DNA of 64,000 nucleotides from positions 141,282 through 205,281 of the forward strand of contig CAWFEM010000008.1 in assembly GCA_963814905.1 (NCBI GenBank). Direction: 5' to 3'. Position numbers and translations under genes: made by a program. The notes below the pieces were generated by a model, which worked only from the letters and a program-made list of their open reading frames with translations, did not search any database and was not told the DNA's origin. How positions within the stretch are numbered: position 1 is the stretch's first letter; the number at the start of each line of letters is the position of its first letter. Source of the stretch: an uncultured Alphaproteobacteria bacterium. GTDB lineage: Bacteria; Pseudomonadota; Alphaproteobacteria; Rhizobiales; Afifellaceae. This document shows positions 21,455 through 59,447 of the stretch, piece by piece.

Positions 21455-21457
21455 AAT

Positions 21458-23344: not shown

Positions 23345-23454
23345 CTCTCCATGCCCATGTCCGCTCCTGGCGCTTAACTGAAGTCGGGACCGACGGGGAG
23401 CATGTCTTCTCTAGAGGGTGAAGCGGACATACTAACAGTGTTGTCGGGAGTCCG

Positions 23455-42710: not shown

Positions 42711-43437
42711 GGGGCTTACGCTCGTCCCAGAGCCGAAATCCTCCGATGAAGGCGTTTTCGTTGTCGCCGAGCCGCGCGTGCGGCGGCAGCGTTTTCAACT
42801 TCGTCGCGTTGCCGCCGCCCAGAACGACATAATCGGGCTCAAGCGCGGCCGTAAGATGCTCGACCGCGGAGGCGACGACGTGGCGCCACCTCTTGAGCCC
42901 CATCCGTTTAAGGCCGTCGCGGCCGAGATATTGCTCGAACGTCTTTCCGTGCCGATAGCCGAGATGCGCCAATTCCATCGGTTGCACCGCGCCGTCGACA
43001 ATCATGGCCGCGCCCAGACCTGTTCCGAGGCCTAGGAACAGCATGCGCCCGCCTGAATAGCTGCCGAGCGCCTGCATGACGGCGTCGTTGACGATCTTGA
43101 TCGGTCGGGCGAACGCGGCGTGAAAATCGAACCCGACCCAGCCGCTGCCGAGATTGTGCGGCTCGGCGATGGGCCGATTGTGAATGACCGGCCCGGGATA
43201 TCCCATCGACACGACATCGTAGTCCCAGTCCTTCGTCAGCTCCAGGACCTGGGCCGCCATTTCCCGAGCGCTGAGATCAGGGCCGGACTCGAACGCGCGC
43301 CTCTCCGATTTTGAGTTCAGCAGAACTTTGACATGCGTTCCGCCGACGTCGATCGCAAGAATCTTGCGGCGCTTTCCACGCTGACCGGATCGGGGCGGTT
43401 TTACGGGCGTCGCAGCTTTTCCACGCTTATTGCTCAT
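42703..43437 (-). CDS. ppgK: ROK-family polyphosphate/ATP glucokinase (PpgK-like)
   Basis: Trimmed to ATG 43437, giving 244 aa. Blocks [39 protein letters not shown] and ELAHLGY are present. The start overlaps the zwf 3' end by 11 nt. Confidence 0.8.
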
Positions 43438-44830
43438 GATTCGATCCGCCGGCGACGCTCGGCTCGCGCCAGCCGCCGGCGCCTTTCGCGATTTCAGCTG
43501 CCTCGGCCGGCCCCATGGATCCGCGATCGTATTCGTGCAGCGGCGTCTTGTTGCCGAGGATAGGGTCGACGATGCGCCATTGCGCTTCGGCGCTGTCCTG
43601 TCGCGCGAACAGCGTCGCGTCTCCGAGCATCGCATCGCCGATGAGCCGCTCGTAGGCGCTCATCTCGTCGCCGCTGCTGTGCATCACCTTGAGTTCGGCC
43701 TGCTCGCCGGTCATCGCCTCGCCGGGCTTCTTGGTTCGCGCGCCGAGGGCGATCACCACGTCGGGACTGAGGCGGAAGCGGAGATAGTTCGGCCGCCGCG
43801 GTCGGCTCGTGCCGAAAACGATCTTCGGCGGATAGTCGAAATCGACCACCACTTCGGTTGCCGTAACCGACAGACACTTGCCCGCCCGCACCAGGAACGG
43901 CACGCCCTGCCACCTCCAGGAATCGATGTGCAGGCGCAGGGCAGCGAACGTCTCGACCTCGGAGTCCGGCGCTACACCCGGCTCGCTTCGGTAGCCGTTG
44001 AATTGGCCGCGGACGAGCTCCGCCGGGTCGAGCGGCCGCACGGAGTTGAACAGCTTGATCTTCTCGTCACGCACAAAGTTGGCGTCGTCGCTGACCGGAC
44101 ACTCCATCGCCAGAATAGCGACGATCTGCAGAAGATGGTTCTGGATGACATCGCGAAGGGCGCCGACCTCCTCGTAGAAGCGGCCGCGGCCGGCGACGCC
44201 GAAACTTTCGGCCATCGTGATCTGGACGCTGCGCACATAGTTGCGGTTCCAGATCGGCTCCAGAAACGCGTTGGCGAAGCGGAAATAGAGAAGGTTTTGG
44301 ACCGGCTCCTTGCCGAGGAAGTGGTCGATCCTGAAAATAGCGTTTTCCGCCAGAACCTTGTGCAGCGTCTGATCGAGAGCCACCGCCGATTGGAGATCCC
44401 GCCCGAAGGGCTTTTCGATGACGACGCGAGCGCCCTCGACACCGCCGGAACTGGCCAGGCCATCGACGACGTCGGGAAACATGCTCGGCGGGATGGCGAG
44501 GTAGTAGAGCGGCCGCTGGCAACCGCTTAGCGCCGAACGCAATTGCCGGAATGTCTCGGCATCTCGGTAGTCGCCATCGATGTAGCGCAAGAGTCCGGCG
44601 AGCCGCGCGAAGACGTCCGCATCGAAGTCGGGCGCTTCTTTCACGGCGTCTCGCGCGTGCGCCTTCAGGTCGTCGAGTGTCCAGCCGGATTTCGCCACGC
44701 CGACAACCGGGACGTGGAGCTTGCCGCGCCGGCACATCGCGTAAAGGGCGGGAAGAATCTTCTTGTGCGCGAGATCGCCGCTCGCGCCGAACAGGACCAA
44801 TGCGTCCGAGGGTGCGGCGGTCGTCGTCAC
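43427..44830 (-). CDS. zwf: Glucose-6-phosphate 1-dehydrogenase
   Basis: 467 aa. It carries the coenzyme loop [20 protein letters not shown] and the active-site block [11 protein letters not shown]. The GTG start lies 1 nt after the gnd stop. Confidence 0.93.
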
Positions 44831-44831
44831 G

Positions 44832-45851
44832 CTATTTGTCCGCGGGTTTCTCGACGTGGCCGCCGAACTCGTCGCGCATCGCGGAGAGCATCTTGTCGGC
44901 GAAATCGGCGGCGCCGCGCGAAGCGAAGCGCTCGAAGAGCGCCGTGCTCAACACCGGTACCGGCACACCTTCGTCGATCGCCGCCTTCACCGTCCAGCGC
45001 CCCTCTCCGGAATCGGAAACCCGTCCCTTGAAGGCCGAGAGTTCGGGGTCGTTCAGAAGCGCCTCCGCCGTCAGGTCGAGAAGCCAGGAGGAGATGACGC
45101 TGCCGCGGCGCCACACCTCGGCGACCTCCGCGACATCGATTTCGTAGCGGTAGGCCTCCGGATCGGCGAGAGGCGCGGTCTCCGCGTCGGCGACGCCCGT
45201 CTTCGCGCCGACATTGGCGTGGCGCAGCACGTTGAGACCTTCGGCGTAGGCGGCCATGAGGCCGTATTCGATCCCGTTATGGACCATCTTGACGAAGTGG
45301 CCGGCGCCGCTCGGGCCGCAATGCAGATAGCCGTGCTCGGCCGTCGTGGCGCGGTCCGCGCGTCCAGGGATGCGCGGCGCGGAATCGATCGCGGGCGCGA
45401 GCGTGGCGAAGATCGGATCGAGCCGCCTGACCGGCTCGTCTTCCCCGCCGATCATTTGACAGTAGCCGCGCTCCAGGCCCCAGACGCCGCCGCTGGTGCC
45501 GACATCGAGATAGTGGATGCGCTTTTGCTGAAGCGCCTTCGCGCGGGCGATGTCGTCGCGGTAGTAGGAATTGCCGCCGTCGATCAGCACGTCATCCGCC
45601 GCGAGAAGACCGGTCAATTGGCCGATCGTGTCGTCGACGATAGCCGCCGGTAGCATCATCCAGACGGCGCGCGGGGCTTTCAGCTTGGCGACGAGATCGG
45701 CCATCGAATCCGCGCCGACGGCGCCTTCACCGGCGAGCGCCGCCACCGATTGCGGCCTGATGTCGAAGACGACGCACTCATGCCCGCCGCGCATGAGCCG
45801 GCGCGCAATGTTGGCGCCCATCCGTCCGAGCCCGATAATGCCTAGCTGCAT
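44832..45851 (-). CDS. gnd: 6-phosphogluconate dehydrogenase, short (about 340 aa) decarboxylating form
   Basis: Trimmed to ATG 45851. [19 protein letters not shown] is the Rossmann motif, followed by GGNSYY and [13 protein letters not shown]. Confidence 0.9.
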
Positions 45852-46003
45852 GGTCGCTCCAAATTCCGGCGGGCCAGCGGCCGAGCCGCTCAAAGGAGGA
45901 AATAGAGCATTGCCCGCGATGTCGCTACCCGTCAGCGAATACGTTTAAGAAAGCCTCGACGCCCGGCGTATTTCCGAAGCGATGCAGCTTTATTCGGGCG
46001 AGC

Positions 46004-47230
46004 TCATCGCAGCCGTGCGGACGCGTTCGCGCGCGCCCGATCGTTCGCGGCCCCAAGCAGCGCGGCGGCGAGGCCGACCAGTGCGACCAGAGCGCCCGCG
46101 AGCGGCACGGCCGGCAGGCTGAAGCCTTGATCGATGATAACGCCGCCGAGAAAAGCGCCCCCGGCGTTGCCGAGGTTGAAGGCCCCGATATTCAAAGTCG
46201 ACGCGAGGTTCGGCGCGTGGCTCGCCTTGTCCACGACGCGCGACTGAAGGCCGGGCACGACACCGAAGGCGGCCATCGCCCAGATGAAGATGACGATCAG
46301 CGTGGCGACCTTGCTATGGGCGACGAGCGAGACCGCGGCCAGCGAGACGACGAGCACGGCGAGCATCGTGATCATCGCGCGCATCGCGCCGCGGTCGGAA
46401 AACTTGCCGCCGAGGGTGATTCCGATCGTCAGCGCGATCCCGATCATGAACAGGATCAGCGTGACGTTGGAGGGCGTGAAGCCGGTCACCGTCTGGAGCA
46501 GCGGCACGATATAGGTGAAGAGCGTGAAGGTGCTGGCGGAGGCGATGATCGTCGTGGCGATCGCCAGCAGCACGTCCCCTTGGCGGAGGACCGAGAGCTC
46601 GCGGCGCATGCCTTCTGAGCGCCGCGCGGCGATCTCGGGCACGAGCCAGTAGACGGGGACGAGGGCGACCAGGCCGAGCACTGTGATCACCCCGAATGTT
46701 GCCCGCCAGCCGAACGTCTGTCCGACCAGGGTTCCGAGCGGCACGCCGAGGATATTGGCGAGCGTCAGACCGAGGAACATCAGGCCGATCGCGCTAGCCT
46801 GGCGGTTCACGGGCACCATGCCGGCCGCGACCACCGCGCCGACGCCGAAGAGCGTCCCGTGCGCGAAGGCTGCAAGCACGCGCGCAACGACCAGGAGCCA
46901 GTAGCTCGGCGATAAGGCAGAGATGAAATTGCCGACGATGAACACGCCGACCATCATGATGAGCACGCGCTTGCGCGGCTGGTTGGCGGTCAGCGCGGCG
47001 AGGATCGGTGCCCCGATCACGACGCCGAGGGCATAGGCGGTGACGAGCTGCCCGGCGAGCGGGATTGAGACGGAAAGATCGCGGGCGATATCCGGCAAAA
47101 GCCCCATCACCACAAATTCGGCGGTACCGATGCAAAAGGCGCACATGGTGAGCGCAAGCACTGGGATCGGAATCCCGCGCCACATCGCGATCGGCGGGGT
47201 CTCCGCGCCAAGCTCTCGTTCCGCTGTCAT
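46004..47230 (-). CDS. MFS transporter (DHA1/sugar-efflux-like, 12 TM)
   Basis: 408 aa hydrophobic protein. It has an MFS-like loop motif ..LTANQPRKRVL.. after TM2 and 12 predicted TM segments by eye. Confidence 0.85.
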   Translation of the reverse strand: MTAERELGAETPPIAMWRGIPIPVLALTMCAFCIGTAEFVVMGLLPDIARDLSVSIPLAGQLVTAYALGVVIGAPILAALTANQPRKRVLIMMVGVFIVGNFISALSPSYWLLVVARVLAAFAHGTLFGVGAVVAAGMVPVNRQASAIGLMFLGLTLANILGVPLGTLVGQTFGWRATFGVITVLGLVALVPVYWLVPEIAARRSEGMRRELSVLRQGDVLLAIATTIIASASTFTLFTYIVPLLQTVTGFTPSNVTLILFMIGIALTIGITLGGKFSDRGAMRAMITMLAVLVVSLAAVSLVAHSKVATLIVIFIWAMAAFGVVPGLQSRVVDKASHAPNLASTLNIGAFNLGNAGGAFLGGVIIDQGFSLPAVPLAGALVALVGLAAALLGAANDRARANASARLR

Positions 47231-47330: not shown

Positions 47331-48590
47331 TCAGCCGGAATATTCCATGATGTAGAGGCCTGCGCCGCTCCAGTCGGTCACGTAGCAAAGTCCGTTCCGG
47401 TCGACGAAGACGTCGGCGGAATGGAGCACGATCGGGCGGTTCGGGCGCGGATCGACCAGCTTCTTCGGCGCCGGCGGGACGCAGGCTCCGACCTCGATCG
47501 GGCGGAGCGGGTCGCTGATATCGTGGACGCGCAGGCCGGCATTCTGCCAGGTCGAGAAGATCAGCGTCTCGCTTTGCAAGCCTTCCGGCCGGTTCTCATA
47601 GATGTTGTGCGGGCCGAAATGGCCGCCGACCGCGATATAGTCGCGATCCTCGGGCGGCGGCAGGATCGAGATCGAGATCGGGTTCGCCTTTACCTGGTTG
47701 TCGAAGACCCAGATCGGCTTGAACCCGTCCTCTCCGCCATCGAGCACGGCTTCGTCGAGCACGATCAGCAGATTGCGCTTCGGCAACGGCAGGCAATTGT
47801 GCGTGCCCCCGCCGAAGGGCGGCGACCAGTTCTTATGCACGATGAGCTTCGGCTTCGCCTTGTCTTTCACGTCGACCACCGCGAGGCATCCGTCGCGCCA
47901 GGCGCAATAGGCGACGTCGTCATGCACGACCGCGTGATGGAGCCCGTAGCGTCCGCGCTTTAGCGGCCAGTCCGCCACCTCGTCGCGCGCCACGTTCATG
48001 CCGGGCAGCCAGTATTTCCCGACAATTCGCGGTTTCGTTGGATCCTGCATGTCGATGGTGACGAGGATGTAGTCGCTGAATCCGTCGAGCATGGCGGAGG
48101 CGTAGGCCCAGCGTCCGCCCGTGTACCAGATGCGGTGCAGCCCCGTTCCCTTGACCGGCATGAAGCCGATGCGGCGCGGCTCGGCCGGCTTGGAGATGTC
48201 GTAGACCGCCATCCCGGCCGACCAGTCGCGCCTCTTCTTCTCAGCGGCGTGGCCGTGCGTGCCGGCCTTCGGTTTGTAGTAGTTCCGTTCGTCCGCCATC
48301 TCCGTCTGCGCGAACATGTCATGCGCGTGGATCAGGAGGAGCAGGTCGCCGTGGACCTGCAGGTGCAGGCTCCACGTGTTGGGCGGGTTCTCCACATAGT
48401 TGACCGTTTTTGGCTTCGTCGGATCGCGCACGTCGACGACGCTGAAGCCACGCGAGCAGACATGCCCGATATAGGCATGGCCGCGATGCACCATGATCTG
48501 CTGGCCGTCGCCCCGCCCGTTCTGGTCGGTGTGGCCGACGATGCGCATGTTCTGCGCGTAAGACGGCTTCGGGAAATCGGGGCGGGGCAT
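47331..48590 (-). CDS. LVIVD-repeat beta-propeller protein, paralogue 1 (function unknown; no signal peptide)
   Basis: 419 aa. It has repeated hydrophobic-VxDVxDPxxPxxVG units: GFSVVDVRDPTKPKTV, GMAVYDISKPAEPRRIG, ILVTIDMQDPTKPRIVG, CLAVVDVKDKAKPKLI and GLRVHDISDPLRPIEVG. Long blocks are identical to 48790..50037 and 50165..51418. Confidence 0.8.
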   Translation of the reverse strand: MPRPDFPKPSYAQNMRIVGHTDQNGRGDGQQIMVHRGHAYIGHVCSRGFSVVDVRDPTKPKTVNYVENPPNTWSLHLQVHGDLLLLIHAHDMFAQTEMADERNYYKPKAGTHGHAAEKKRRDWSAGMAVYDISKPAEPRRIGFMPVKGTGLHRIWYTGGRWAYASAMLDGFSDYILVTIDMQDPTKPRIVGKYWLPGMNVARDEVADWPLKRGRYGLHHAVVHDDVAYCAWRDGCLAVVDVKDKAKPKLIVHKNWSPPFGGGTHNCLPLPKRNLLIVLDEAVLDGGEDGFKPIWVFDNQVKANPISISILPPPEDRDYIAVGGHFGPHNIYENRPEGLQSETLIFSTWQNAGLRVHDISDPLRPIEVGACVPPAPKKLVDPRPNRPIVLHSADVFVDRNGLCYVTDWSGAGLYIMEYSG

Positions 48591-48639
48591 CTTTCGTTCC
48601 TAGTCTCGCATGCGGTTCGGGAAGACGTGCATGAGCGCC

Positions 48640-48770
48640 TTGCGTCCTTCGAGGCCCGGCCCCTAGGTGCCGAGCGCCTCAGGATGAGGGGCGTTGGGGA
48701 TTGCAGCCCTCCCTGCCTCCCTCATGCTGAGGTGCGACCCCGGACTTAATCCGGGGGAGCCTCGAAGCAC
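48640..48770. repeat. Rhizobiales-type mosaic intergenic repeat between propeller paralogues 1 and 2
   Basis: Spurious translations ASFEARPLGAERLRMRG and LMLRCDPGLNPGEPRS match peptide patterns I recognise from REP-like elements. Hairpins are ccccgga-cttaa-tccgggg (48738-48756) and two cctca-N3-tgagg units. The element is related to the one at 26014-26036. Confidence 0.45.
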
Positions 48771-48789
48771 GCAGCGACGCTTCCGCCAC

Positions 48790-50037
48790 TCACCCCTTAT
48801 ATTCGACGATGTAGAGGCCTGCCGAGAAGTCGGTCACGTAGCAAAGCGCGTTCTTGTCGACGAAGACGTCGGCGGAATGCAGCACGATCGGACGGTTCGG
48901 CCGCGGATCGACCCACTTCTTGGGCGGCGGCGGAACGAAGGCGGCGATCTCTTTCGGCCGGAACTGGTCCTTGATGTCGTAAACCCGGAGACCGGCGTTC
49001 TGGTAGGTCGCGAAGATCGTCTCCGAGCTCTGGAAGCTTCCCGGCCGGTTCTCATGCACGTTATGCGGCCCGAAGTGCCCGCCGACCTTCAGGTAGTTCT
49101 TGTCTGAGGGCGCGGGGAAGGTGGAGATCGAGATCGGATTCGACTTCACCTGGTTGTCGAAGACCCAGATCGGCTTGAAGCCGTCCTCCTGGTTGTCGAG
49201 CACGGTCTCGTCGACCACGACCAGAAGATCGCGGTCGGGGAGGGGAAGGGCGTTGTGCGTGCCCCCACCGAAGGGCGGCGCCCACGTCTTGTGGACGATC
49301 AGCTTCGGCTTGGACTTGTTCTTGACGTCGACCACGGCGAGGCAGGCGTCGCGCCACGAGCAATAGGCGACGTCGTCGTGGATGATGGCGTGGTGCAGGC
49401 CGAAGCGTCCGTTCGGGGTCGGCCAGTTCGCCTTCTCTCCCGCCGCCGTGTTCATGCCGGGCAGCCAATATTTTCCCGCCAGCTTCGGCTTCTTCGGATC
49501 CTTCAGGTCGATGGTGATCAGGATGTAGTCGGAGAAGCCGTCGAGGAGCGCTGAGGCGTAGGCCCAGCGCCCGCCCACATACCAGAGGCGATGGAGCCCG
49601 GTTCCTTCCACCGGCATGAAGCCGATCTGTTTCGGGTCGCCGGGCTTGGAGATGTCGTAGACGGCCATGCCCGCCGACCAGTCGCGCTTCGCCGATTTCG
49701 GCTCGGCGTGATGCGCCACCTTGCCCTTGTAATACGCCTTCTCGTCGGCGAGCTCGGGCTGCGCGAACATGTCCTTGTTGTGGATGACGAGGAGAAGGTC
49801 GTCATGCGCCTGCAGGTGCAGCGTCCAGGTGTTCGGCGGTGCGGCGACATGTTTCACGGTCTTCGGGTTCTTCGGGTCGCGCACGTCGACGACCGAAAAG
49901 CCCTTGGAGAAGATGTGCCCGATATAGGCGAAGCCGCGGTGCACCATGATCTGCACGCCGTCGCAGCGGCCGTCCTGGTCGCTGTAGCCGACGAGTTTCA
50001 TGTTCTTGGTTGCGTAGTCGGGTTTGGGAAGCGCCAT
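48790..50037 (-). CDS. LVIVD-repeat beta-propeller protein, paralogue 2
   Basis: Trimmed to ATG 50037, with GGAG upstream, giving 415 aa. It is colinear with paralogues 1 and 3. Identical blocks include GFSVVDVRDP, DWSAGMAVYDISKP, GGRWAYASA, GFSDYI, KPIWVFDNQVK and VDPRPNRPIVLHSADVFVD. Confidence 0.8.
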   Translation of the reverse strand: MALPKPDYATKNMKLVGYSDQDGRCDGVQIMVHRGFAYIGHIFSKGFSVVDVRDPKNPKTVKHVAAPPNTWTLHLQAHDDLLLVIHNKDMFAQPELADEKAYYKGKVAHHAEPKSAKRDWSAGMAVYDISKPGDPKQIGFMPVEGTGLHRLWYVGGRWAYASALLDGFSDYILITIDLKDPKKPKLAGKYWLPGMNTAAGEKANWPTPNGRFGLHHAIIHDDVAYCSWRDACLAVVDVKNKSKPKLIVHKTWAPPFGGGTHNALPLPDRDLLVVVDETVLDNQEDGFKPIWVFDNQVKSNPISISTFPAPSDKNYLKVGGHFGPHNVHENRPGSFQSSETIFATYQNAGLRVYDIKDQFRPKEIAAFVPPPPKKWVDPRPNRPIVLHSADVFVDKNALCYVTDFSAGLYIVEYKG

Positions 50038-50164
50038 GGCGATCGTCTCCTCGGTCCGACGCCCCGCATTTGCGGCCGGCGCCTGCATCTTGGTCGGTGG
50101 TTATGTCAGGCCTGACGGCCTCGCCGCGCGCTCGATCGGCGTCGATCGGCGAGCGCGAAGCCGG

Positions 50165-51418
50165 TCAGCCCGAAAACTCGCAGATATAAAGCCCCACGCT
50201 GAAGTCGGTGAAATAGACGAGGCCGGCCTTGTCGACGAACACGTCCGCTGAGTGGAGCACCAGCGGCCGGTTCGGCCGGGGATCGACGAGCTTCGTCGGC
50301 GGCGCCGGGACGAACGCGCCGATCTCCTTCGGCTGGTAGGCGTTGTCGATGTCGAAGACGCGCACACCCGCGTTCTGATAGGTGGTGAAGATCGTGCGGT
50401 CGCTGACGAATGCGTCCGGCCGGTTCTCATAGACGTTGTGAGGGCCGTAATGGCCGCCGACCTCCAAATAGTCGGTGTCGGTGGCGAGCGGGAAGGTGGA
50501 GATCGAGACCGGATTCGTCGGCTCGCGATTGTCGAACACCCAGATCGGCTTCATCCCGTCCTCCATCTTGTCGAGGACGGCTTCGTCGAGGACGAGGAGC
50601 AGATCGCGCTCCGGAAGCGGCAGGCAATTATGCGTGCCGCCCTGGAACGGCGGCGACCAGCTCTTGTGGACGATCAGCTTCGGATCGCTGCGGTCCTTGA
50701 CGTCGACGACGACGAGGTTGGCGTCGCGCCAGGCGCAGTAGGCGGTGTCGCCATGGACGACGCCGTGGTGGCAGCCGTAGCGTCCGGTCTCCGTCGGCCA
50801 GTTCGTCTTCTCGCCGGCGGCCAGATTCATGCCCGGGAGCCAGAACCGTCCCGCCTCGCGCGGATTGGTCGGGTCCGACATGTCGATGGTGATGAAGATG
50901 TAGTCCGAAAAGCCCTCGATCAGGGCCGATGCGTAGGCCCAGCGCCCGCCCACGTACCAAAGGCGGTGAATGCCGCCGCCGTCGACCGGCATGAAGCCGA
51001 TCTGCTTCGGCGCGGCCGGCTTTGAGATGTCCCAGACGGCCATGCCCGCCGACCAGTTGCGCTCGCCCTTCGCCTCCGACTGCCCGTGGAAGTCGGTCTT
51101 GCCTTTGTAGTAGTTGCGCTCGTCGGCGAGTTCCGGCTGCGCCCACATGTTCTTGGCATGCACGACGAGGAGCAGGTCCTCATAGGCCTGGCAGTGCAGG
51201 TTCCAGGTATTGTCCGGGCAGGGGTAGTAGCCGAGCGGCTTCGGGTTCTTCGGATCGCGAACGTCGATGACGCTGAAGCCGTTGGAGAACAGGTGGCTGA
51301 CGTAAGCATGGCCCTTGTTGACCATCACCTGCACGGCATCCGGGCGGCCGCCCTGGTCGCTGTGGCCTATGGCGCGCATGTTGTGCGCATAAGCGGGTTT
51401 CGGAATATCGCCGGCCAT
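50165..51418 (-). CDS. LVIVD-repeat beta-propeller protein, paralogue 3
   Basis: 417 aa with AGGGGA upstream. It is colinear with the other two paralogues (GFSVIDVRDP, NWSAGMAVWDISKP, GGRWAYASAL, KPIWVFDN, VDPRPNRPLVLHSADVFVD). It starts 81 nt downstream of the SBP gene. Confidence 0.8.
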   Translation of the reverse strand: MAGDIPKPAYAHNMRAIGHSDQGGRPDAVQVMVNKGHAYVSHLFSNGFSVIDVRDPKNPKPLGYYPCPDNTWNLHCQAYEDLLLVVHAKNMWAQPELADERNYYKGKTDFHGQSEAKGERNWSAGMAVWDISKPAAPKQIGFMPVDGGGIHRLWYVGGRWAYASALIEGFSDYIFITIDMSDPTNPREAGRFWLPGMNLAAGEKTNWPTETGRYGCHHGVVHGDTAYCAWRDANLVVVDVKDRSDPKLIVHKSWSPPFQGGTHNCLPLPERDLLLVLDEAVLDKMEDGMKPIWVFDNREPTNPVSISTFPLATDTDYLEVGGHYGPHNVYENRPDAFVSDRTIFTTYQNAGVRVFDIDNAYQPKEIGAFVPAPPTKLVDPRPNRPLVLHSADVFVDKAGLVYFTDFSVGLYICEFSG

Positions 51419-51499
51419 CTTCGTCCCCTTATGTGGGAGACGGCGCGCGCGGCGCCGTCTCCTTTTCTCGTCGAGACTCTTTGATCTCTGCGTCCGGGC

Positions 51500-52618
51500 T
51501 TACTTGCCCCAGATTTTCTTGTACTCGTCGCGATAGCCGTTGCCGGGATCGAAGATGTTGTCCTTGCCACCGTCCGCGTCGATGTTGGCGCGGATGAAGA
51601 GGTGCGGCGGGGCGACGTAGCCGCTCGGAGCCTCGCCGGCGAACGCGCGGTTCAGCTCGTCGATCGTCTCCCAGCCATGCAGGTAGAGCGGCTCGGCGAC
51701 CGTGGCGACCTGGTACTGGCCGTCGCGGATGCGCTGGAACGCCGGAACGGAGCCGTCGCCGGCCGAGATATTACGCGGATATCCCTCGGCGGGGTCGATG
51801 CCGGCGCTCTGCAGCGACGGTGCGGCAAAGTCGTAGTAGAGGTCGTTGACCGCGACCGAATAGGTCCACTGGTCGCCGTATTTCGTGAGCAGCGACGTCG
51901 TGAGCTGGCCCATGCGGTTTTGCAGGTCGCCGATCGGCGTATCGACCGTCTCAAGCACCTTGCAGCCCGAGCAGCCTTCGACGGCCTTCGCGGTCGCGTC
52001 GCTCTTCGCGATCGCGATCGCGTAGATGGAGTCGGTGAAGATGATGACACCGGCCTTGCCGCCGGAATCCACCACCGCGTAGAGGCCCGACGCCTTGGCG
52101 ACCTCAAGCGGGTCGGTCGTGATGTTGGTGATCACGCCCGGCACGCCCTCGATCGGGCCAGGAGCGCCGCCGGAGTGCCATCCGACGACCTTGATGCCCT
52201 GCGCCACCGCCTGCTCGATCAGCGGCGCCTGTTCGCGTGCGTCGATGGTACCGAGGATGATGCCGTCGGGCTTCAGCGCGATCGCCTGCGTCAGGGCGGA
52301 AGCACGAGTGGACGGCTGCCCCTGCCCGTCGAGCAGGCGGAAGTCCCAACCAATCGCCTTCGCCGCTTCTTCCGCGCCGTCGCCGACGCCCTTGGCGCCG
52401 CCGTTGCGCTGATCGTCGGAGACGTAGATGACCAGCTTGTCGGGCTGTGCCTTGGGGCCGGTGGTCGGACCGGTCCATTCCGTCACCGGCGCGGTGACGG
52501 TGTCGATATAGGCTTTCGCCTCGTCCATGAAGGCATCTTGCGCGAAGCTCGTGCCTGCCGTGAGCGTGACGATCGCGGTGGAGACGAACAGTGCTTCACC
52601 GATGGTTCTCAATCTCAT
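51500..52618 (-). CDS. Periplasmic sugar-binding protein (type I PBP, CUT2-like)
   Basis: The 666-aa track ORF was trimmed to ATG 52618, preceded by GGGAGAAATAAG. It has a signal peptide MRLRTIGEALFVSTAIVTLTAGTSFAQ and is 372 aa. PBP blocks are LVIYVSDDQRNGG and IKVVGWHSG. Confidence 0.85.
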   Translation of the reverse strand: MRLRTIGEALFVSTAIVTLTAGTSFAQDAFMDEAKAYIDTVTAPVTEWTGPTTGPKAQPDKLVIYVSDDQRNGGAKGVGDGAEEAAKAIGWDFRLLDGQGQPSTRASALTQAIALKPDGIILGTIDAREQAPLIEQAVAQGIKVVGWHSGGAPGPIEGVPGVITNITTDPLEVAKASGLYAVVDSGGKAGVIIFTDSIYAIAIAKSDATAKAVEGCSGCKVLETVDTPIGDLQNRMGQLTTSLLTKYGDQWTYSVAVNDLYYDFAAPSLQSAGIDPAEGYPRNISAGDGSVPAFQRIRDGQYQVATVAEPLYLHGWETIDELNRAFAGEAPSGYVAPPHLFIRANIDADGGKDNIFDPGNGYRDEYKKIWGK

Positions 52619-52674: not shown

Positions 52675-53784
52675 TTATGCTCTGCCGGCCTTCTCTTCGC
52701 GGGCGGCCGCCGCGGCGACGCTGCCCGGATCTTCTTCCGGTGTGACAGTTATCCTTGTCGGTGCCGCCCGCACCGCCGCACGGCGGCGCTGGGCGAAGCC
52801 CGCAAGCGCGATCGAGACGACGAGGGTCGTCCCGTTGAACAGCGGCTCCACGAAGAAGGCGCCGCCGAGCTGCTGAATCCCCGAAATGCCGACGGCGAGG
52901 ATCGCCACGCCGAAGATTGTTCCCCAGACGTTGACCCGGCCGGGCTTGATCGTCGTCGATCCGAGAAAGGCGCCGACCAGCGCGGGCAGAAGATAGTCGA
53001 GCCCGACATTCGCCTGCCCGATCCTGAGCTTCGCGGCGAGCACGCAGCCGGCGAAGCCCGCGATCAGCGCGGAGCCGACGAAGACGCCGATAATGTAGTA
53101 GCGAACCGGAATGCCGTTCAGCGCGGCCGCCTTCTCGTTGGCGCCTATCGCATAGACGTGCCGCCCGAGCGGCAATCGCTCGCTCATGATCCACAGCGCT
53201 ATGGCCAGCGCGAGGACGTAGAGGGCGGGGATCGGAATGCCGAGGACGGAGGTCGTGTTGATCGCGATGAAGCTGGGCGAAAGCGAGCCGACGAGCTGGC
53301 GCCCGTCGGTGAACCACAGCGCCAGGGCGTAAAGCACGGTGCCGGTCCCAAGCGTGGCGATGAACGAGTCGATCTGCGCCACCTCCACAAGGAGGCCGTT
53401 GAAGAGGCCGACAAGCGCGGCGCACACAAGCACGGCCAGGATCGCAAGTGGCCACGGCACGCCGTATTTGACCTGCAGACCGATCGCCAGGATGTGCCAC
53501 ATCACGATGCCGAAGCCGACATTGAGGTCGATGCGGCCTGCCATCATCGGAACGGTCGCCGCCAGCGAGAGGAGGGCAATGATCGCCTTGTCGGCGAGGA
53601 TCGAGCGGAAGTTCAGGTAGGTCGGAAAGGTCCTGGGCAGGAGCAGCGAGAAGAAGATGATGAGCAGGACCGTCAGGATCGGCAGGCCGTAGACCGGAAT
53701 CAGCCGCAGGATCTGGCGGCCCCGAGAGAGGCTGGCCAGCTCCGAGCGCGTCGGCTCGAGCGCGTTGGACCTAATGGACGGCAT
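52675..53784 (-). CDS. CUT2-family ABC transporter permease
   Basis: Trimmed to ATG 53784, giving 369 aa. It is polytopic with the family blocks ..MAGRIDLNVGFGI.. and ..GSTTIKPGRVNVWGT... It overlaps the ATPase 3' end by 14 nt. Confidence 0.85.
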   Translation of the reverse strand: MPSIRSNALEPTRSELASLSRGRQILRLIPVYGLPILTVLLIIFFSLLLPRTFPTYLNFRSILADKAIIALLSLAATVPMMAGRIDLNVGFGIVMWHILAIGLQVKYGVPWPLAILAVLVCAALVGLFNGLLVEVAQIDSFIATLGTGTVLYALALWFTDGRQLVGSLSPSFIAINTTSVLGIPIPALYVLALAIALWIMSERLPLGRHVYAIGANEKAAALNGIPVRYYIIGVFVGSALIAGFAGCVLAAKLRIGQANVGLDYLLPALVGAFLGSTTIKPGRVNVWGTIFGVAILAVGISGIQQLGGAFFVEPLFNGTTLVVSIALAGFAQRRRAAVRAAPTRITVTPEEDPGSVAAAAAREEKAGRA

Positions 53785-55426
53785 TGCGGCCACCGCCGGC
53801 TTCGTGGGGATTCGCGTAGACGCCCATTCGCCCCACGCGAGCGGAGGCCGCCGCGAGCAGGTTCTCCACCGACAGATCGTGGGCACCGAGCTCCGCAACG
53901 ACGCGGCCGCGGTCGAAGACCAGCGCGCGATGGCAGACCTTGGCGACTTCCTCGAAATCCGTCGAGACGATGATGATCGCCGCGCCTGCCTGCAGAGCGA
54001 CGTCGAAGAGCCGATAGATCTCGGCCTTGGCGCCGACGTCGACGCCCGCCGTCGGATCCTCGAAGATGTAGACCTTGCTCGCTAGGTGAAGCCAGCGTCC
54101 CACGACCACCTTCTGCTGGTTGCCGCCGGAGAGGAGTTCGATGGCGAGGTTCGGATCGTTCGGCCGCAGCCCGACCTTGCGGCCTAGATCCAGGGCCGCG
54201 TGGTTCTCGCGGCGCGGCGGCAGGAAGGAGAAGAGGCCGAGCCCTGCGGCCAGCGGATTGAGGAACAGGTTCTCCCTGACGCTCAGATTGGGCATCACGG
54301 ATTCGCCGACCCGGTCGGCGCCGACCATGTTGATGCCGCACGCCATCGCCTGTCCCGGGGAGTCGACGTCCAACGCATCACCGTCGAGCATCGCACTGCC
54401 CGATGTTATCGGGAAAAGCCCGAAGAGGGCGCGGCCGATGCACTCCTGTCCGGCGCCGCGCAGGCCGACGAACCCGACGACTTCGCCGGCATGCAGCGAG
54501 CAGTCGACCGGACCGACGTCCTCTGTGATCATCGCCTTCAAGACGAGGCGCGCCATCCCCTCGCGGTGCGCCGGGCGGCGGAACACTTGCGACGGCTCGC
54601 GCCCGACGATCAGCAGGATCGTCTCCTCCGGTGTCGTCTCCGACAGACGGCGCTCGCCGGCGACGCGGCCGTCGCGCAGCACGACCATGCGGTCGGCGAT
54701 CTCGAATACTTCGTCAAGCCGGTGCGAGACGTAGATCATCCCGACACCGCGATCGCGCAGTCTGCGAAGCGCGGAGAAGAGCCGCACCACCTCGTCGGCG
54801 GGGAGACTCGCGGTCGGCTCGTCGAGCACCAGAATCTCCGCCTCGGCGGCCAAAGCGCGTGCGATCGCGACGAGCGATTTCTCGGTCCGGGTGAGGCTCT
54901 CGATGCGCACGTCCGGATCGATGTCGGCGCCGAGGATCTCAAGCGCCGCCGCCGCGCGTTCGCGGGCCGCGCGCCAGTTCACCATGCCGATCCGCCGCGG
55001 ATAGCCGAGCGTGAGGCAGATATTCTCGGCGACCGTCATCCAATCGATCAGCCCGAGGTCCTGATGGATGAAGGAGATCGGCAGACGGCGGAGCATATGC
55101 GCGGCATCGCGGCCGCGATATTTAACCGCGCCGTCGTCGAGCGTGTAGACGTTTGCAAGGATCTTGATGAGCGTGGATTTGCCGGCGCCGTTCTCACCCA
55201 GGAGAGCGACGATCTCGCCGGCGCCGACCTGTAGGCCGACCTGGTCGAGCGCCCGCGTCCCGCCGAACTGCTTGGAGATGTCGTGCATCACCAGAAGCGG
55301 CTCGCCGCGGTTCGCGGCCGCGCCGGCGTCGCTGCTTACGCTGGTTGACCCAACGGGCCGCCCTTCGCCATCCACCCGGCTCACTCCTCCCGTCCCCGGT
55401 TCGCCTAGTCGACCGAAGCCCCGCAT
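53771..55426 (-). CDS. CUT2-family ABC transporter ATP-binding protein (duplicated ATPase)
   Basis: Walker A GENGAGKSTL, Walker B ILVLDEPTA, a second signature LSGGNQQKVVVGRW and a second Walker B IFEDPTAGVDV are present. The start is uncertain: ATG 55426 has no SD, while the in-frame GTG at 55375 follows GGGAGGA. Confidence 0.9.
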   Translation of the reverse strand: MRGFGRLGEPGTGGVSRVDGEGRPVGSTSVSSDAGAAANRGEPLLVMHDISKQFGGTRALDQVGLQVGAGEIVALLGENGAGKSTLIKILANVYTLDDGAVKYRGRDAAHMLRRLPISFIHQDLGLIDWMTVAENICLTLGYPRRIGMVNWRAARERAAAALEILGADIDPDVRIESLTRTEKSLVAIARALAAEAEILVLDEPTASLPADEVVRLFSALRRLRDRGVGMIYVSHRLDEVFEIADRMVVLRDGRVAGERRLSETTPEETILLIVGREPSQVFRRPAHREGMARLVLKAMITEDVGPVDCSLHAGEVVGFVGLRGAGQECIGRALFGLFPITSGSAMLDGDALDVDSPGQAMACGINMVGADRVGESVMPNLSVRENLFLNPLAAGLGLFSFLPPRRENHAALDLGRKVGLRPNDPNLAIELLSGGNQQKVVVGRWLHLASKVYIFEDPTAGVDVGAKAEIYRLFDVALQAGAAIIIVSTDFEEVAKVCHRALVFDRGRVVAELGAHDLSVENLLAAASARVGRMGVYANPHEAGGGRNAVH

Positions 55427-55500: not shown

Positions 55501-55674
55501 GCCAGGCAAATTCCGAGTCTAATTCACGGCGACAGTCGTCGCTTCACACTAGATTTAACGTAAGGAAATCAGTAAAGGTGTCAATCTGATTTTTGGGCGA
55601 TGTCGCTGAGATTCCCGCCGCGGTGCGGGGCCAGCGGCGGTTTCTCGCTAAAGGCGCGCAAGCGAAGGAGCGGT

Positions 55675-56469
55675 ATGCCACCACAATCTGTCAGACAACT
55701 TTTCCGAGAGGACCTGACAAGCGATTGGGACGCGCTGCCGCCGGGCGCACGCCTCGGTGACCGGCTCTGCCAGCGAATGGTCACTTTGATCGAACGTGGC
55801 GAGTTCAGCGAGGGCGGACGGCTTCCGGCGGAGAGCGAGCTCGCCTTGCGCTTCGGGGTGTCGCGCCCGGTGATCCGGGAAGCGTTGTCGCGCCTGCGAA
55901 TGATGGGGGTCATCATTTCGCGCAAGGGGTCGGGAAGCTACGTGCAGAAGCGCGCCAGCCCGCCCTCGGACGTGCCGGCGATCGGGTTCGGTCCGGTCAG
56001 CAGCCTGGCGCAGGTGCGTAAGTGTTACGAGTTTCGGATGAGCTTCGAGGGCGATGCGGCGTATTACGCGGCGCAGAACCGCACCGCCGAAACGCTGCTT
56101 CCCATGAAGGACGCGCTCGATCGGATGGCGCGCGCGGTCAACGAAGGCGCGCTCGGCATGAGCGCCGACCTGGAATTCCATTTCGCCGTTGCCCGCGCGT
56201 CCGGGAACGAGTTCTTCGAGGCGGTGATGGAGGCGATGCGGACGCCTTTGGAGTTCGCCGTCAATCTCGCGCGCAGCCTGACGCTGACGCGGCCGCTCGA
56301 GCACCTGCTGACGGTGCAGGCTGAACACGTCGCCATGTTCGACGCGATCGAAGCCGGGGACAGGGAGGCCGCTCGTCTCGCGATGCGAACGCACATCGGG
56401 AATGCGTGCGAGCGGGTCTTCGAGGGGCCGGGCAAAGGCCAGGGCGAACCGGAGGCCGACGCAAAATGA
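55675..56469 (+). CDS. GntR family transcriptional regulator (FadR subfamily, FCD domain)
   Basis: Trimmed to ATG 55675, preceded by GAAGGAG. The HTH is LPAESELALRFGVSRPVIREALSRLRMMGVIISRKGSGSYV. The C-terminal all-helical FCD-like domain contains ..DLEFHFAVARASGNEFF... Confidence 0.9.
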   Translation: MPPQSVRQLFREDLTSDWDALPPGARLGDRLCQRMVTLIERGEFSEGGRLPAESELALRFGVSRPVIREALSRLRMMGVIISRKGSGSYVQKRASPPSDVPAIGFGPVSSLAQVRKCYEFRMSFEGDAAYYAAQNRTAETLLPMKDALDRMARAVNEGALGMSADLEFHFAVARASGNEFFEAVMEAMRTPLEFAVNLARSLTLTRPLEHLLTVQAEHVAMFDAIEAGDREAARLAMRTHIGNACERVFEGPGKGQGEPEADAK

Positions 56470-56482
56470 GCGTCCGAAACGC

Positions 56483-57460
56483 GTGAGCCTGCCCCGCGTC
56501 TTCGTTCCGCATCCGATCCACGCTGACGGGCTTGCCAGGCTGGCGGAGCATTTCGTCGTCGATGCCCCGCTCAGCCAGGATGAGGACGAGCAGTGGCTGT
56601 CGTTCTCTATGGCCGACGCGGTCGTCGTCAGAAATATCGGGATCGACGCCGAGCTGATCGCGGCGCTTCCACGTCTCAGGGTGATCGCCAAGCACGGGGC
56701 CGGGGTCGACAACATCGACATCGCCGCGGCGACCGCGCGCGGTATCGTCGTCGCGAGCGTTCCCGGCGGCAATGCGGATGCCGTCGCGGAGGCGACCGTG
56801 ACCATGATGCTCGCCGCACTGCGGCGTGTTCCGGCCGTGCATGAAATGGTCGTCGGCGGGCGCTACGCGGCGCGCTGGGAGCTGCAATACGAACAGCTCC
56901 TCGATCGGACTCTGGGGCTTGTGGGAATCGGGAATATAGGCGCGCGCGTCGCGCGTATATGCGCGAGCGGGTTCAGGATGCGCGTGCTGGCCTACGATCC
57001 GGGGCTCTCAGAAGCGGCCGTCAAGGAGCGCGGGGCGGAGAAGGTGGGGAGCCTCGAAGCACTCCTGTCGGCGTCCGACGCCGTCTCCCTGCATGTGCCG
57101 CTGACGGCGGAGACCCGCCACATCATCGGCCGGGAAGAGCTGAAGGCCATGAAGCCGACCGCGATTCTCGTCAACGCGGCGCGGGGGCCGCTCATCGACG
57201 AGCGCGCGCTGGCGGAGGCTTTGCACGACGGACGGATCGGCGGCGCGGCGCTCGACGTCTTCGAGGTCGAGCCCCCGGCACCGGACAATCCGATCCTGAC
57301 GGCGCCAAACGTCGTGCTTTCGCCCCACACCGCCGGCAACACGGTGGCGGCGGCGCGCACGCTTGCGCTCGCATCGGCCGACATTGCGATCTCCGTCCTC
57401 TGCGGCCGCCGGCCGGAGGGATTTCTCAATCCCGAGGTCTGGGAGCGACGGCGAAAATAG
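56483..57460 (+). CDS. D-isomer-specific 2-hydroxyacid dehydrogenase (phosphoglycerate dehydrogenase-like)
   Basis: Blocks LGLVGIGNIGARVA (GxGxxG), VNAARGPLIDE and LSPHTAGNT (catalytic His) are present. The start is assigned to the GTG at 56483, which is uncertain because the track ORF extends to 56402. Confidence 0.85.
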   Translation: MSLPRVFVPHPIHADGLARLAEHFVVDAPLSQDEDEQWLSFSMADAVVVRNIGIDAELIAALPRLRVIAKHGAGVDNIDIAAATARGIVVASVPGGNADAVAEATVTMMLAALRRVPAVHEMVVGGRYAARWELQYEQLLDRTLGLVGIGNIGARVARICASGFRMRVLAYDPGLSEAAVKERGAEKVGSLEALLSASDAVSLHVPLTAETRHIIGREELKAMKPTAILVNAARGPLIDERALAEALHDGRIGGAALDVFEVEPPAPDNPILTAPNVVLSPHTAGNTVAAARTLALASADIAISVLCGRRPEGFLNPEVWERRRK

Positions 57461-58525: not shown

Positions 58526-59227
58526 CTATTTCGGCTTGGACGCGAGGTAGCGGTCCTTGGTCTCCGCGTTCATGGGGTAAAGGCCGGGGAGGGACGCGCC
58601 CTTCTCCACCTCCGCCACGATCCACGCCTCCATGCGCTCCTGTTCGGGCGCCTCCGCCAGCACTTCGTCCACGAGCGCCTGCGGGATGACGACTGCGCCG
58701 TCCCCGTCGAGAACGACGATGTCGTCGGGCATCACCGCGACCCCACCGCAGCCGATCGGCTCCTGCCAGCCGACAAAAGTCAGCGCGGCGACCGAAGGCG
58801 GCGCTGCGCCGCCCTGGCACCAAACGGGGAGGCCGGTCTCCTTCACGCCGGCGAGATCGCGCACCATGCCGTCGGTGACCAATGCCGCCACCTGGCGCTT
58901 GACCATGCGGGCGCAGAGGATGTCGCCGAATATCCCGGCATCCGTCACGCCCCTCGCGTCGGCGACCACCACGCAATCCGGCGGCATGGCCTCGATCGCT
59001 GCGCGCGTGGAGGTGGGCGAGGACCACGACGCGGGGGTCGCAAGATCCTCGCGCGCCGGCACGAAGCGGAGCGTGAAGACGCTGCCGACCACGCGCGGCT
59101 GATTTGGGTGCAGCGCCTGCGGACCGCGCATCCAGATATTGCGCAGCCCCTTCTTCAGCAGGACCGTCGTTATCGTCGCGGTCGAGGTCTGGGCGAGAAT
59201 TTCTTTCACGTCCGGATTGAGCGGCAT
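58526..59227 (-). CDS. RraA-like / 4-hydroxy-4-methyl-2-oxoglutarate (HMG/CHA) aldolase family protein
   Basis: Trimmed to ATG 59227, giving 233 aa. Blocks are ..TATITTVLLKKGLRN.., VVVADARGVTDAGIFGDILCARM and GDGAVVIP, typical of the RraA fold. Confidence 0.8.
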   Translation of the reverse strand: MPLNPDVKEILAQTSTATITTVLLKKGLRNIWMRGPQALHPNQPRVVGSVFTLRFVPAREDLATPASWSSPTSTRAAIEAMPPDCVVVADARGVTDAGIFGDILCARMVKRQVAALVTDGMVRDLAGVKETGLPVWCQGGAAPPSVAALTFVGWQEPIGCGGVAVMPDDIVVLDGDGAVVIPQALVDEVLAEAPEQERMEAWIVAEVEKGASLPGLYPMNAETKDRYLASKPK

Positions 59228-59447
59228 GGCCCTTCTTCTTTCAAAAGTCGGCGAGGTCGACGCCGGGCACCAATAGCTTTGGAAAGCATGGCGGGTCCAG
59301 TCGTGGGGGAGCGGCATCGTCTCCGGCCCTTGTCACCGGGAAGCACCGTCTCGCGTCATGGGAGGGTTAAGAGCCGGATTCGGCGGAACACCGCGCCTTG
59401 TGGACGAAGCGTCGTGCAAGCCGGCGAAGAACGGTCGCGTCTCGCGA

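Follow-up and report, generated by a model that had tools for sequence, protein, structure and literature searches.

Tandem LVIVD-repeat propellers in an alphaproteobacterial uptake operon: predicted cytoplasmic metalloenzymes distantly related to the Sphingobium phosphotriesterase

A 64,000-nucleotide stretch of DNA from an uncultured alphaproteobacterium of the Afifellaceae (contig CAWFEM010000008.1, positions 141,282 to 205,281; hereafter, the window) carries three tandem genes for LVIVD-repeat beta-propeller proteins, designated A, B and C, next to the genes of an ABC importer. Here we show that these proteins belong to a family with remote but significant homology to Sb-PTE, a phosphotriesterase of Sphingobium that has seven blades and a binuclear Mn centre. 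On balance, we think it probable that A, B and C are cytoplasmic seven-bladed propeller metalloenzymes that act on the compound imported by the adjacent ABC system. An initial annotation of this DNA had described the genes as His-containing propellers in a sugar ABC operon and suggested that they are enzymes, possibly forming a hetero-oligomer; taken as a whole, that interpretation is partly supported. The family itself is large, and wholly uncharacterised and unannotated. At E <=1e-5 it is matched by 4181 clusters (90% identity), all named 'hypothetical' or 'LVIVD repeat-containing', and the matching representatives at 50% identity number 283 at E <=1e-30 and 9260 at E <=1e-3.

A structural model of copy A was created with AlphaFold2 from a 41-sequence alignment. 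The model (pLDDT 82, pTM 0.87) consists of seven four-stranded blades. When the PDB was searched with this model using Foldseek, the top match was Sb-PTE (5HRM; E 6e-17, TM-score 0.67), and all other matches were generic WD40-type propellers at E 4e-9 or worse, a gap of eight orders of magnitude. Sequence comparisons identify the same relative. Copy A alone retrieves Sb-PTE from the PDB sequences only at E 0.01, and a family profile is needed; one built from 29 members spanning 30-72% identity matches 5hrm_A in hmmsearch at E 6e-18, over profile positions 14-360, i.e., nearly the full length, while hhalign of the family against Sb-PTE gives a probability of 99% and E 9e-18. The best Pfam match of Sb-PTE is itself LVIVD, at a score below threshold. 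A, B and C all score above the PF08309 gathering score of 20.2 bits in HMMER (Table 1), in agreement with the LVIVD assignment of the initial annotation. Searches for other propeller families were negative: A, B and C have no Pfam match at E <=1 to the RPE65/carotenoid-cleavage oxygenases (PF03055), which are also missing from the top 50 structural matches, nor to the SGL or Lactonase families at the same threshold. Two more candidates were rejected, namely the selenium-binding protein/methanethiol oxidase propeller (SBP56, 15.3 bits against a cut-off of 34; MtoX, 12.3 against 650) and the NCBIfam 'choice-of-anchor B' model (28 bits against 100).

Across the 29 sequences, down to 30% identity, the invariant or near-invariant polar residues are D53, H152-R153, D180, H218, D240, H264, E280, D297, H328-N329, R354, E366 and D393. 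D53, D180, D240 and D297 each supply the 'D' of the blade repeat, probably with a structural role. The binuclear Mn centre of Sb-PTE is said to have been described by Mabanglo and colleagues in 2016, with His258, His317, His389, Glu407 and His475 as ligands, plus a bridging Glu201. With the 5hrm chain numbering converted to that of the full-length protein (an offset of +87, derived from two PDB constructs), H152 aligns with His258 and H264 with His389 (HMMER/hhalign), and H218 aligns with His317, directly in hhalign. E280 falls directly on Glu407 in HMMER and two residues away in hhalign, and H328 meets His475 after a 3-residue indel inside a common R-(F/L)-G...H motif. Because these independently computed positions fall on exactly the numbers listed, they in turn support the ligand list. 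Thus, by alignment, five of the six Sb-PTE metal ligands, four His and one Glu, are kept in position. According to the strand list of the model, Q31, H76/Q78, H152, H218, H264, H328 and D393 occupy the equivalent, innermost strand of blades 1 to 7, respectively; one conserved residue per blade, joined by E280 at the position of H264, is therefore predicted to form a ligand ring around the central channel. All three window copies hold the complete ligand set. The motifs GLHR, GLHH, GGTHN and GPHN, in which the initial annotation had seen a possible metal site, supply His residues that align with the Sb-PTE ligands, and this part of its reading is strengthened, the bound metal being a prediction. 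The family also has many conserved Arg, namely R153, R160, R214, R232 and R354.

To assess the cellular location, we examined the first 45 residues in nine-residue Kyte-Doolittle windows. No N-terminal hydrophobic segment was found by this measure in A, B or C, whose maximal window means are 0.5-1.2, versus at least 2.1 in distant relatives with leaders. Several of these more distant relatives bear obvious Sec- or Tat-like leaders, e.g., MPTRRQLLSVLSVASAGLCAPA. In the window proteins the first propeller strand begins at about residue 10-11. Since hydropathy reveals no leader peptide, A, B and C are predicted to be cytoplasmic, and so is their whole subfamily. This bears out the earlier statement that the three propellers lack signal peptides (maximum <=1.2). 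The LVIVD repeat (PF08309) was first described from archaeal and bacterial cell-surface proteins (PMC2447325), and on the hydropathy evidence A, B and C do not share the surface or secreted location of that founding description. LVIVD proteins are therefore not always secreted or exposed at the surface, although some distant members have Sec- or Tat-like leaders; as a default, the surface view needs correction.

A, B and C are intact genes and are colinear end to end. Protein identity is 72% between A and B and 65% between A and C, with a mean column identity of 82% and only two indels, each of one to three residues. The initial annotation had recognised three minus-strand genes of 415-419 amino acids, with well over half of all positions identical by eye; the genes are confirmed as open reading frames (ORFs), the measured identity is 65-72%, and all the shared motifs it quoted occur in the three proteins. 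The true start of B is most likely the ATG at 50037 (MALPKPDY...) and not 50088, with a GAGGAG Shine-Dalgarno sequence ~10 nt 5' of this ATG. The three DNA copies share 66-78% identity and repeat at periods of 1456 and 1375 nt; comparison of copy against copy reveals no long identical tracts. Recent gene conversion is therefore not indicated; the duplication is old and has not been homogenised. The dN/dS ratio (omega) against the orthologues in loci L016 and L017 is 0.18 for A, about 0.16 for B and 0.07-0.14 for C. Only such orthologue comparisons were used, as dS is saturated between paralogues and makes their values of 0.32-0.40 unreliable. With omega within 0.06-0.19 overall, all three copies are under purifying selection, and the pseudogenisation or relaxed selection of two copies that the initial annotation had considered is not seen.

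Related loci were collected by a scan of one genome per species, which gave 585 confirmed relatives. We studied the best 80 loci, which are 67-85% identical; the scan was seeded with a closer alignment and this set is thus biased towards relatives of at least 67% identity. They come mostly from Hyphomicrobiales metagenome-assembled genomes (MAGs) and from Bradyrhizobium, Methylocapsa, Roseiarcus, Acetobacteraceae and Rhodobacterales, the nearest to the window being the Hyphomicrobiales MAGs L008, L016 and L017. In ~50 of the 80, orthologues of the ATPase, permease and binding protein (60-94%) adjoin the propeller, usually in the order ATPase-permease-solute-binding protein (SBP)-propeller, and binding-protein orthologues (62-94%) stand beside it in ~40. 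The same order is found in metagenomic contigs, in a 47%-identical relative, and in Klebsiella pneumoniae (VK055_1911-1914), Rahnella and Erwinia, where the propeller is ~60% identical. A GntR/FCD orthologue diverges from the transporter in at least 11 loci, and L001, L005 and L088 likewise contain a GntR/FCD gene; orthologues of the window's 2-hydroxyacid dehydrogenase lie in the same neighbourhood in 11. The window's MFS gene likewise follows the propellers in L008, L015-L017, L024, L025 and L066.

The number of propeller genes in these loci is one, two or three, and their order is always SBP-[C]-B-[A]. Where there is a single copy, as in Bradyrhizobium, it is of the B type (82-90% identical to B). 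The B+A arrangement is common in the window's clade, with A-type orthologues (78-85%) in at least 20 loci, whereas C-type orthologues (88-93%) occur only in L016, L017, L052 and L066. L052 and L066 have C+B; L016 and L017 have C+B+A together with the GntR, 2-hydroxyacid dehydrogenase and MFS genes, as in the window. Because copy number varies and the B type stands alone in single-copy genomes, we regard the triplet as a lineage-specific elaboration of a one-enzyme system. That is, of the proposed linkage between triplet and ABC/GntR set, the tight association with the transporter (~50/80 loci, often with GntR/FCD) holds, but the triplet is not the unit.

The window's transporter has the components of a CUT2 importer: its ATPase is a fused two-domain protein, its permease belongs to BPD_transp_2, and its binding protein, of the Peripla_BP_4 family, bears a signal peptide. 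The start of the binding protein was corrected to about 52618, giving MRLRTIGEALFVSTAIVTLTAGTSFAQ, with a normal signal peptide (MRLRT...SFAQ), and that of the permease is probably near 53750. These assignments, and that of the divergent GntR/FCD regulator, agree with the initial annotation, as does the distance from the SBP stop to the start of C, which is exactly 81 nt (51419-51499). Its 'sugar' label fares less well. The ATPase is closest to AraG, XylG and RbsA, and falls below every NCBIfam equivalog cut-off. The binding protein matches no NCBIfam model, and its best PDB sequence relative has an E-value of only 1e-5; with no informative solved relative, the ligand of the importer cannot be deduced from it. 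Distant family members are found beside other transporters and ring-cleavage genes. Judged by sequence, no known sugar specificity applies to the importer, and 'sugar' is an unproven label, merely the name of the transporter family. As a separate observation, CUT2-type ABC genes lie inside aromatic ring-cleavage clusters at L088 3099-10175 (intradiol) and L096 3689-13938 (LigB extradiol plus FAD hydroxylase), a setting in which the cargo of this transporter subfamily may be polyhydroxylated aromatic or hydroaromatic compounds, not sugars.

The 81-nt spacer contains a GC-rich hairpin (Table 1), which has no U-tract on the coding strand. Comparable hairpins, differing in sequence, are present in almost all SBP-to-propeller spacers of ~30 related loci (L008-L081), and are followed by T-runs in some, e.g., L011, L015, L017 and L025. 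In a classic layout, a hairpin after a binding-protein gene keeps the mRNA of that gene in excess, while downstream genes are expressed by read-through. The spacer hairpin looks like such an intercistronic attenuator or mRNA stabiliser, and expression of the propeller genes probably depends on attenuated read-through. A promoter scan found no promoter-like site above chance inside the cluster, and a search of the window against Rfam gave one tRNA but no riboswitch and no further RNA family. The proposed single transcription unit is thus compatible with the data, with the qualification that a strong hairpin, with equivalents in nearly all related loci, lies within it; co-expression of transporter and propellers will not be one to one. 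Independently of this element, the B-A spacer (48591-48789) is unusually long (199 nt), with an inverted repeat at 48641-48655/48759-48773 (93% complementary) and a CCCCGGA...TCCGGGG hairpin; it may be an internal regulatory or repetitive extragenic palindrome (REP)-like element.

The neighbourhoods of propeller genes share a chemical theme. In the window's clade the recurrent neighbours are the 2-hydroxyacid dehydrogenase, a thiamine diphosphate (ThDP) enzyme, an SMP30-type lactonase, a dihydrodipicolinate synthase (DHDPS)-like aldolase/dehydratase, short-chain dehydrogenases/reductases (SDRs) and the MFS transporter. Four non-homologous hydroxy-acid oxidoreductases lie beside the propeller in different lineages: the 2-hydroxyacid dehydrogenase (2-Hacid_dh); a flavin mononucleotide (FMN) alpha-hydroxyacid oxidase in Caballeronia; a flavin adenine dinucleotide (FAD)/FeS protein in Leisingera, along with a ThDP enzyme, an aldehyde dehydrogenase, a glyoxalase and an SDR; and a YbdH-like iron-type alcohol dehydrogenase (Fe-ADH) in Klebsiella and Rahnella. 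Other enzymes that recur near propellers are ThDP enzymes, aldehyde dehydrogenase and aldolases of the DHDPS-like and RraA-like types, and the L005 locus has an enolase-superfamily enzyme. In a Rhodobacterales operon (L075 99-19107; L084-L086), a CUT1 ABC system, a transglutaminase-like protein, an FGGY kinase, a VOC protein, a class II ketose-bisphosphate aldolase, an HAD phosphatase and an MBL-fold protein precede the propeller, which comes last; an RpiR regulator is divergent, and acetoin-dehydrogenase-like E1/E2, transaldolase and transketolase genes follow. Compared with the inositol, apiose, erythritol, sulfoquinovose and AI-2 routes, this operon fits none of them. The Klebsiella Fe-ADH was also considered as a maleylacetate reductase; it is instead YbdH/glycerol-dehydrogenase-like, and one argument for a hydroxyquinol route therefore falls.

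More distant members (38-47% identical) have a different range of neighbours: an intradiol dioxygenase and Amidohydro_2 in one case; a LigB extradiol dioxygenase, an FAD hydroxylase, a ThDP enzyme and an aldehyde dehydrogenase in another; a Rieske oxygenase and a GFO_IDH_MocA oxidoreductase in a third; and TauE exporters elsewhere. Family members also occur with CUT1, TRAP/TAXI and NitT/TauT transporters, with peptide/opine-type ABC systems and with MFS transporters. In a metagenomic contig (L098 4660-8197), two divergent LVIVD propellers (446 and 398 amino acids) flank Amidohydro_2 in a peptide/opine-type (SBP_bac_5) ABC operon, an independent case of several propellers in one uptake operon.

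The mechanism that we propose would begin with a compound brought in by the CUT2-type importer, with induction via the GntR/FCD regulator and expression from the transporter promoter through the attenuating hairpin. Inside the cell, a divalent-metal-activated water would attack an electrophilic centre of this substrate. The common thread of the neighbourhoods would be that an imported compound, rich in oxygen and probably anionic, undergoes an early reaction, with downstream metabolism via hydroxy- and oxo-carboxylic acids; FCD-type GntR regulators typically sense carboxylates. The initial proposal of catalytic His-metal propellers acting on the imported compound finds support in the Sb-PTE ligand alignment and the transporter linkage. 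For the chemistry itself, we rank first, though tentatively, the opening of a lactone ring or the hydrolysis of an ester, with release of a hydroxy-carboxylic acid, in view of the lactonase analogy and the hydroxy-acid theme among the neighbours. The released acid would be oxidised by the neighbouring 2-hydroxyacid dehydrogenase and passed to the ThDP decarboxylase or to aldolase-type enzymes. Phosphotriesterases of other folds are thought to descend from lactonases (review PMC11277490). Among the three copies, B would be the ancestral enzyme, and A and C retained duplicates with fixed substitutions beside the ligands. The A, B and C orthologue groups have different fixed residues at 40 sites, several of which flank ligands (217, 221, 260, 266, 278 and 325); the C group is the most derived, with C217, Q260 and Y325 as unique substitutions beside ligand residues.

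A broader formulation, which we offer as a possibility and not as the expected outcome, is that the window proteins represent the natural cytoplasmic progenitor family of the Sb-PTE hydrolases, a class of metallo-propeller enzymes not recognised before, with a remodelled metal site that lacks the bridging carboxylate. They would carry out the first intracellular step on an imported cyclic, polyhydroxylated or carboxylated compound, namely the ring opening, by hydrolysis or metal-dependent C-C/C-O cleavage, of a lactone-, hydroxyquinone- or cyclitol-derived compound, and the three paralogues would widen the substrate range.

Several points weigh against hydrolysis at an Sb-PTE-like centre. The equation of the family His and Glu with metal ligands depends on a ligand list that we take to be correct. 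The bridging Glu201 aligns with W73 in hhalign or L77 in HMMER, its partner varying between W73 and Q78 with the method used. Among the 29 sequences, blade 2 contains no conserved Asp or Glu, the conserved residues nearby being T72, H76 and Q78. Because Glu201 has no conserved acidic counterpart, the site may be mononuclear, or binuclear with some other bridge, and need not be hydrolytic. The predicted ligand ring, moreover, is read from alignment and strand register, not from coordinates. SMP30-type lactonases are already present in some of these neighbourhoods, which weakens the lactonase idea, and the distant members beside intradiol and extradiol dioxygenases and Rieske and FAD mono-oxygenases fit redox or ring-cleavage chemistry too.

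The latter chemistry is the basis of the best-surviving alternative, namely that the propellers are non-haem Fe/Mn oxygenases or C-C cleaving enzymes that open a polyhydroxylated (hydroxyquinone-, cyclitol- or aromatic-derived) ring. A mononuclear 4-His(+Glu) centre would then lie on the axis of the propeller, resembling that of the carotenoid-cleavage oxygenases in architecture, not by descent. The loss of the bridging carboxylate, with four His from four successive blades retained, is what such a site would look like; intradiol dioxygenase, LigB extradiol dioxygenase and Rieske oxygenase genes lie next to distant members, and a LigK/RraA-like aldolase is encoded 2 kb away in the window. However, of the homologues that can be detected, the only one with a known function is a hydrolase. 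RPE65/carotenoid-cleavage oxygenase similarity is absent at Pfam E <=1, and the dioxygenases, where present, could cleave the ring themselves. The closest relatives of the window genes adjoin hydroxy-acid enzymes, not oxygenases, and CadB1 (see below), a protein of a ring-degradation cluster that would favour this alternative, is a candidate member of the subfamily. We therefore consider an oxygenase function rather unlikely.

Somewhat less probable still is that the propellers hydrolyse phospho- or sulfo-esters, and so help the cell to acquire carbon, phosphorus or sulfur; the imported substrate might be a phosphodiester, a cyclic phosphate, or a sugar derivative that bears sulfate or sulfonate. 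The homology to a phosphotriesterase and the shared ligands speak for this role, and the many conserved Arg suggest an anionic substrate. Sulfur-related contexts are found in relatives (NitT/TauT ABC with SfnB in Rhizobium NXC24, TauE exporters, an NMT1-type ABC in L001), and the Rhodobacterales operon includes an HAD phosphatase and a kinase. By contrast, the regulator of the window operon is a GntR/FCD protein of the carboxylate type and the operon's enzymes are hydroxy-acid ones, while genes for phosphate or sulfate starvation are absent from it. The triester activity of Sb-PTE is recent and lineage-restricted (PMC13611039), and Sb-PTE is exported and disulfide-bonded, whereas the window proteins are predicted to be cytoplasmic and their Cys are not conserved.

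The hetero-oligomer suggested in the initial annotation, in an obligate form whose catalytic unit needs all three copies, has little in its favour. The tandem order C-B-A is fixed and kept in L016 and L017, and selection preserves every copy. Sb-PTE is a homodimer, and subunit contacts thus exist in this fold. Most related genomes, however, have only B, B+A or C+B with the same transporter, and each copy holds a complete ligand set, as for independent enzymes. Because related genomes carry one, two or three copies, with B universal and often alone, an obligate complex is improbable; the varying copy number and the group-fixed sites that flank ligands fit better with specialised independent enzymes, A and C most likely handling different isomers or related substrates. 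Least probable of all, in our view, is a non-catalytic role in which the propellers would partner the ABC transporter in the cytoplasm as ligand binders, scaffolds or regulators: the transporter genes are indeed the tightest association, tighter than any one catabolic enzyme, and most propellers, including the other Foldseek matches, are interaction modules, but the predicted ring of invariant His/Glu/Asp on the central channel matches a catalytic metal centre, and the variety of transporters found with the family argues against a specific protein partnership.

Table 1. Features of the propeller locus and its surroundings (positions in the window)
Feature	Position	Strand	Length	Remarks
MFS transporter (major facilitator superfamily; AraJ/Cmx-like)	46004-47230	-		100 nt downstream of paralogue A
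Propeller paralogue A	47331-48590	-	419 aa	ORF; Pfam LVIVD 45.2 bits; last propeller gene, lineage-specific extra copy
Propeller paralogue B	48790-50037	-	415 aa	from ATG; longest ORF 48790-50088; Pfam LVIVD 31.2 bits; universal, ancestral-type copy
Propeller paralogue C	50165-51418	-	417 aa	adjoins binding-protein gene; Pfam LVIVD 42.3 bits; rarest, most derived copy
GC-rich hairpin	51435-51463	-	12-bp stem, 5-nt loop	in SBP-to-C spacer, directly after SBP stop
Solute-binding protein (Peripla_BP_4, CUT2 type)	51500-52618	-	372 aa	signal peptide; Pfam E 1e-26
ABC permease (BPD_transp_2)	52675-53898	-		Pfam; NCBIfam monosaccharide permease matches all below cut-off
Fused two-domain ABC ATPase (CUT2 type)	53771-55426	-		Pfam, two ABC_tran stretches
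GntR/FCD regulator (LldR/NanR/PdhR-like)	55600-56469	+		divergent
D-isomer-specific 2-hydroxyacid dehydrogenase	56402-57460	+		downstream of regulator; Pfam 2-Hacid_dh_C E 1e-59
LigK/RraA-like aldolase	58526-59317	-		

Beyond the propeller operon, the D-2-hydroxyacid dehydrogenase gene is followed by one for an auxin-efflux-carrier-type transporter. Between the LigK/RraA-like aldolase and a 333-amino-acid unannotated ORF lies a 609-amino-acid ORF (59506-61335, plus strand) that matches the animal haem peroxidases (Pfam E 3e-100), a family seldom seen in bacteria; the unannotated ORF is followed by an Old-Yellow-Enzyme-type flavin oxidoreductase (62309-63643, plus strand). Directly downstream of the MFS gene, on the minus strand (40338-45893), are genes for a GH15 glucoamylase/glucodextranase, a ROK glucokinase-like protein, a glucose-6-phosphate dehydrogenase and a short 6-phosphogluconate-dehydrogenase-like protein, a tight cluster that resembles an alpha-glucan-to-pentose-phosphate module. 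The single tRNA gene, tRNA-Arg(CCG) (12362-12438), is followed by ~12 kb of lower G+C (12000-24000; 0.58-0.63, versus ~0.66 elsewhere), which may be an integrated island.

Sb-PTE has been reported as restricted to Sphingomonadaceae, with its origin unexplained (PMC13611039). A large intracellular family that keeps its predicted ligand set is a concrete candidate for the ancestral function and makes the origin of Sb-PTE, an enzyme of biotechnological relevance, testable. To our knowledge, Sb-PTE is the only characterised enzyme with this combination of fold and metal centre, and the family offers natural scaffolds for the engineering of organophosphate hydrolases. Our results also draw attention to an orphan importer-enzyme pair that soil Alphaproteobacteria have in common with Klebsiella, Enterobacter, Rahnella and Erwinia; model as well as clinical bacteria thus possess members of the family. 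If the progenitor hypothesis is true, it would entail a new enzyme activity and a ligand for an orphan transporter conserved from Klebsiella to Bradyrhizobium.

Among known systems, SMP30/gluconolactonase/PON1 (six blades, Ca/Zn) and Pgl/YbhE (seven blades) are likewise propeller hydrolases with an axial active site, and the lactonase-to-phosphotriesterase relationship seen in PON1 and SMP30 motivates the lactonase hypothesis. These lactonase-type propellers, however, have no sequence relationship to the window family and differ in blade number or metal ligands. With Pfam LVIVD proteins, A, B and C share scores above gathering and the repeated '...VxDVsDPxxP' blade motifs; unlike the multi-domain surface proteins, they are single-domain and, by prediction, cytoplasmic, with a central putative metal-ligand ring and a place in catabolic operons.

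The closest syntenic counterparts outside the Alphaproteobacteria are Klebsiella pneumoniae VK055_1911-1916 (WP_002894038) and the plasmid orthologues of Rahnella and Erwinia, in which a ~60% identical propeller directly follows a sugar-type ATPase-permease-SBP set and the YbdH-like Fe-ADH and SDR genes are divergent. Unlike in the window, the propeller is single-copy, and it is annotated only as 'LVIVD repeat family protein'; in Klebsiella it was deleted within a large region in a virulence study, with no phenotype attributed to it (PMC5566837). CadB1, a 409-amino-acid 'LVIVD repeat-containing protein', is listed as an enzyme of the chloranilic-acid (dihydroxy-benzoquinone) cluster of Herbaspirillum lusitanum (formerly Pseudomonas putida) TQ07, a cluster without a conventional ring-cleavage dioxygenase (PMC13191619). 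By annotation and size, CadB1 resembles the window proteins, and its gene lies beside solute-binding protein and flavoprotein genes. Its cluster also holds a DHDPS-family aldolase and a lactone (pyrone-dicarboxylate) hydrolase, and the authors list CadB1 as a pathway enzyme (PMC13191619); the transporter there is TAXI-TRAP, not CUT2 ABC, and CadB1 is a putative member of the subfamily.

The nearest relative of known function remains Sb-PTE, the haloalkylphosphorus hydrolase of Sphingobium sp. TCM1 (5HRM, 5IOJ). The two share seven blades, remote homology, LVIVD as the best Pfam match and, by alignment, four His and one Glu of the metal site. They differ in that identity is ~17-22%, and in that the bridging Glu201 of Sb-PTE is not kept in the window family. 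Sb-PTE has 583 amino acids and is disulfide-bonded (bioRxiv 10.64898/2026.02.02.703255), whereas the window proteins, of ~420 amino acids and predicted to be cytoplasmic, have neither a leader nor conserved disulfide cysteines. Their genes, moreover, belong to a nutrient-uptake operon, not to a xenobiotic-phosphorus pathway. Thus, on the evidence of the alignments, A, B and C would best be regarded as a variant related to Sb-PTE, and we do not file them as phosphotriesterases.

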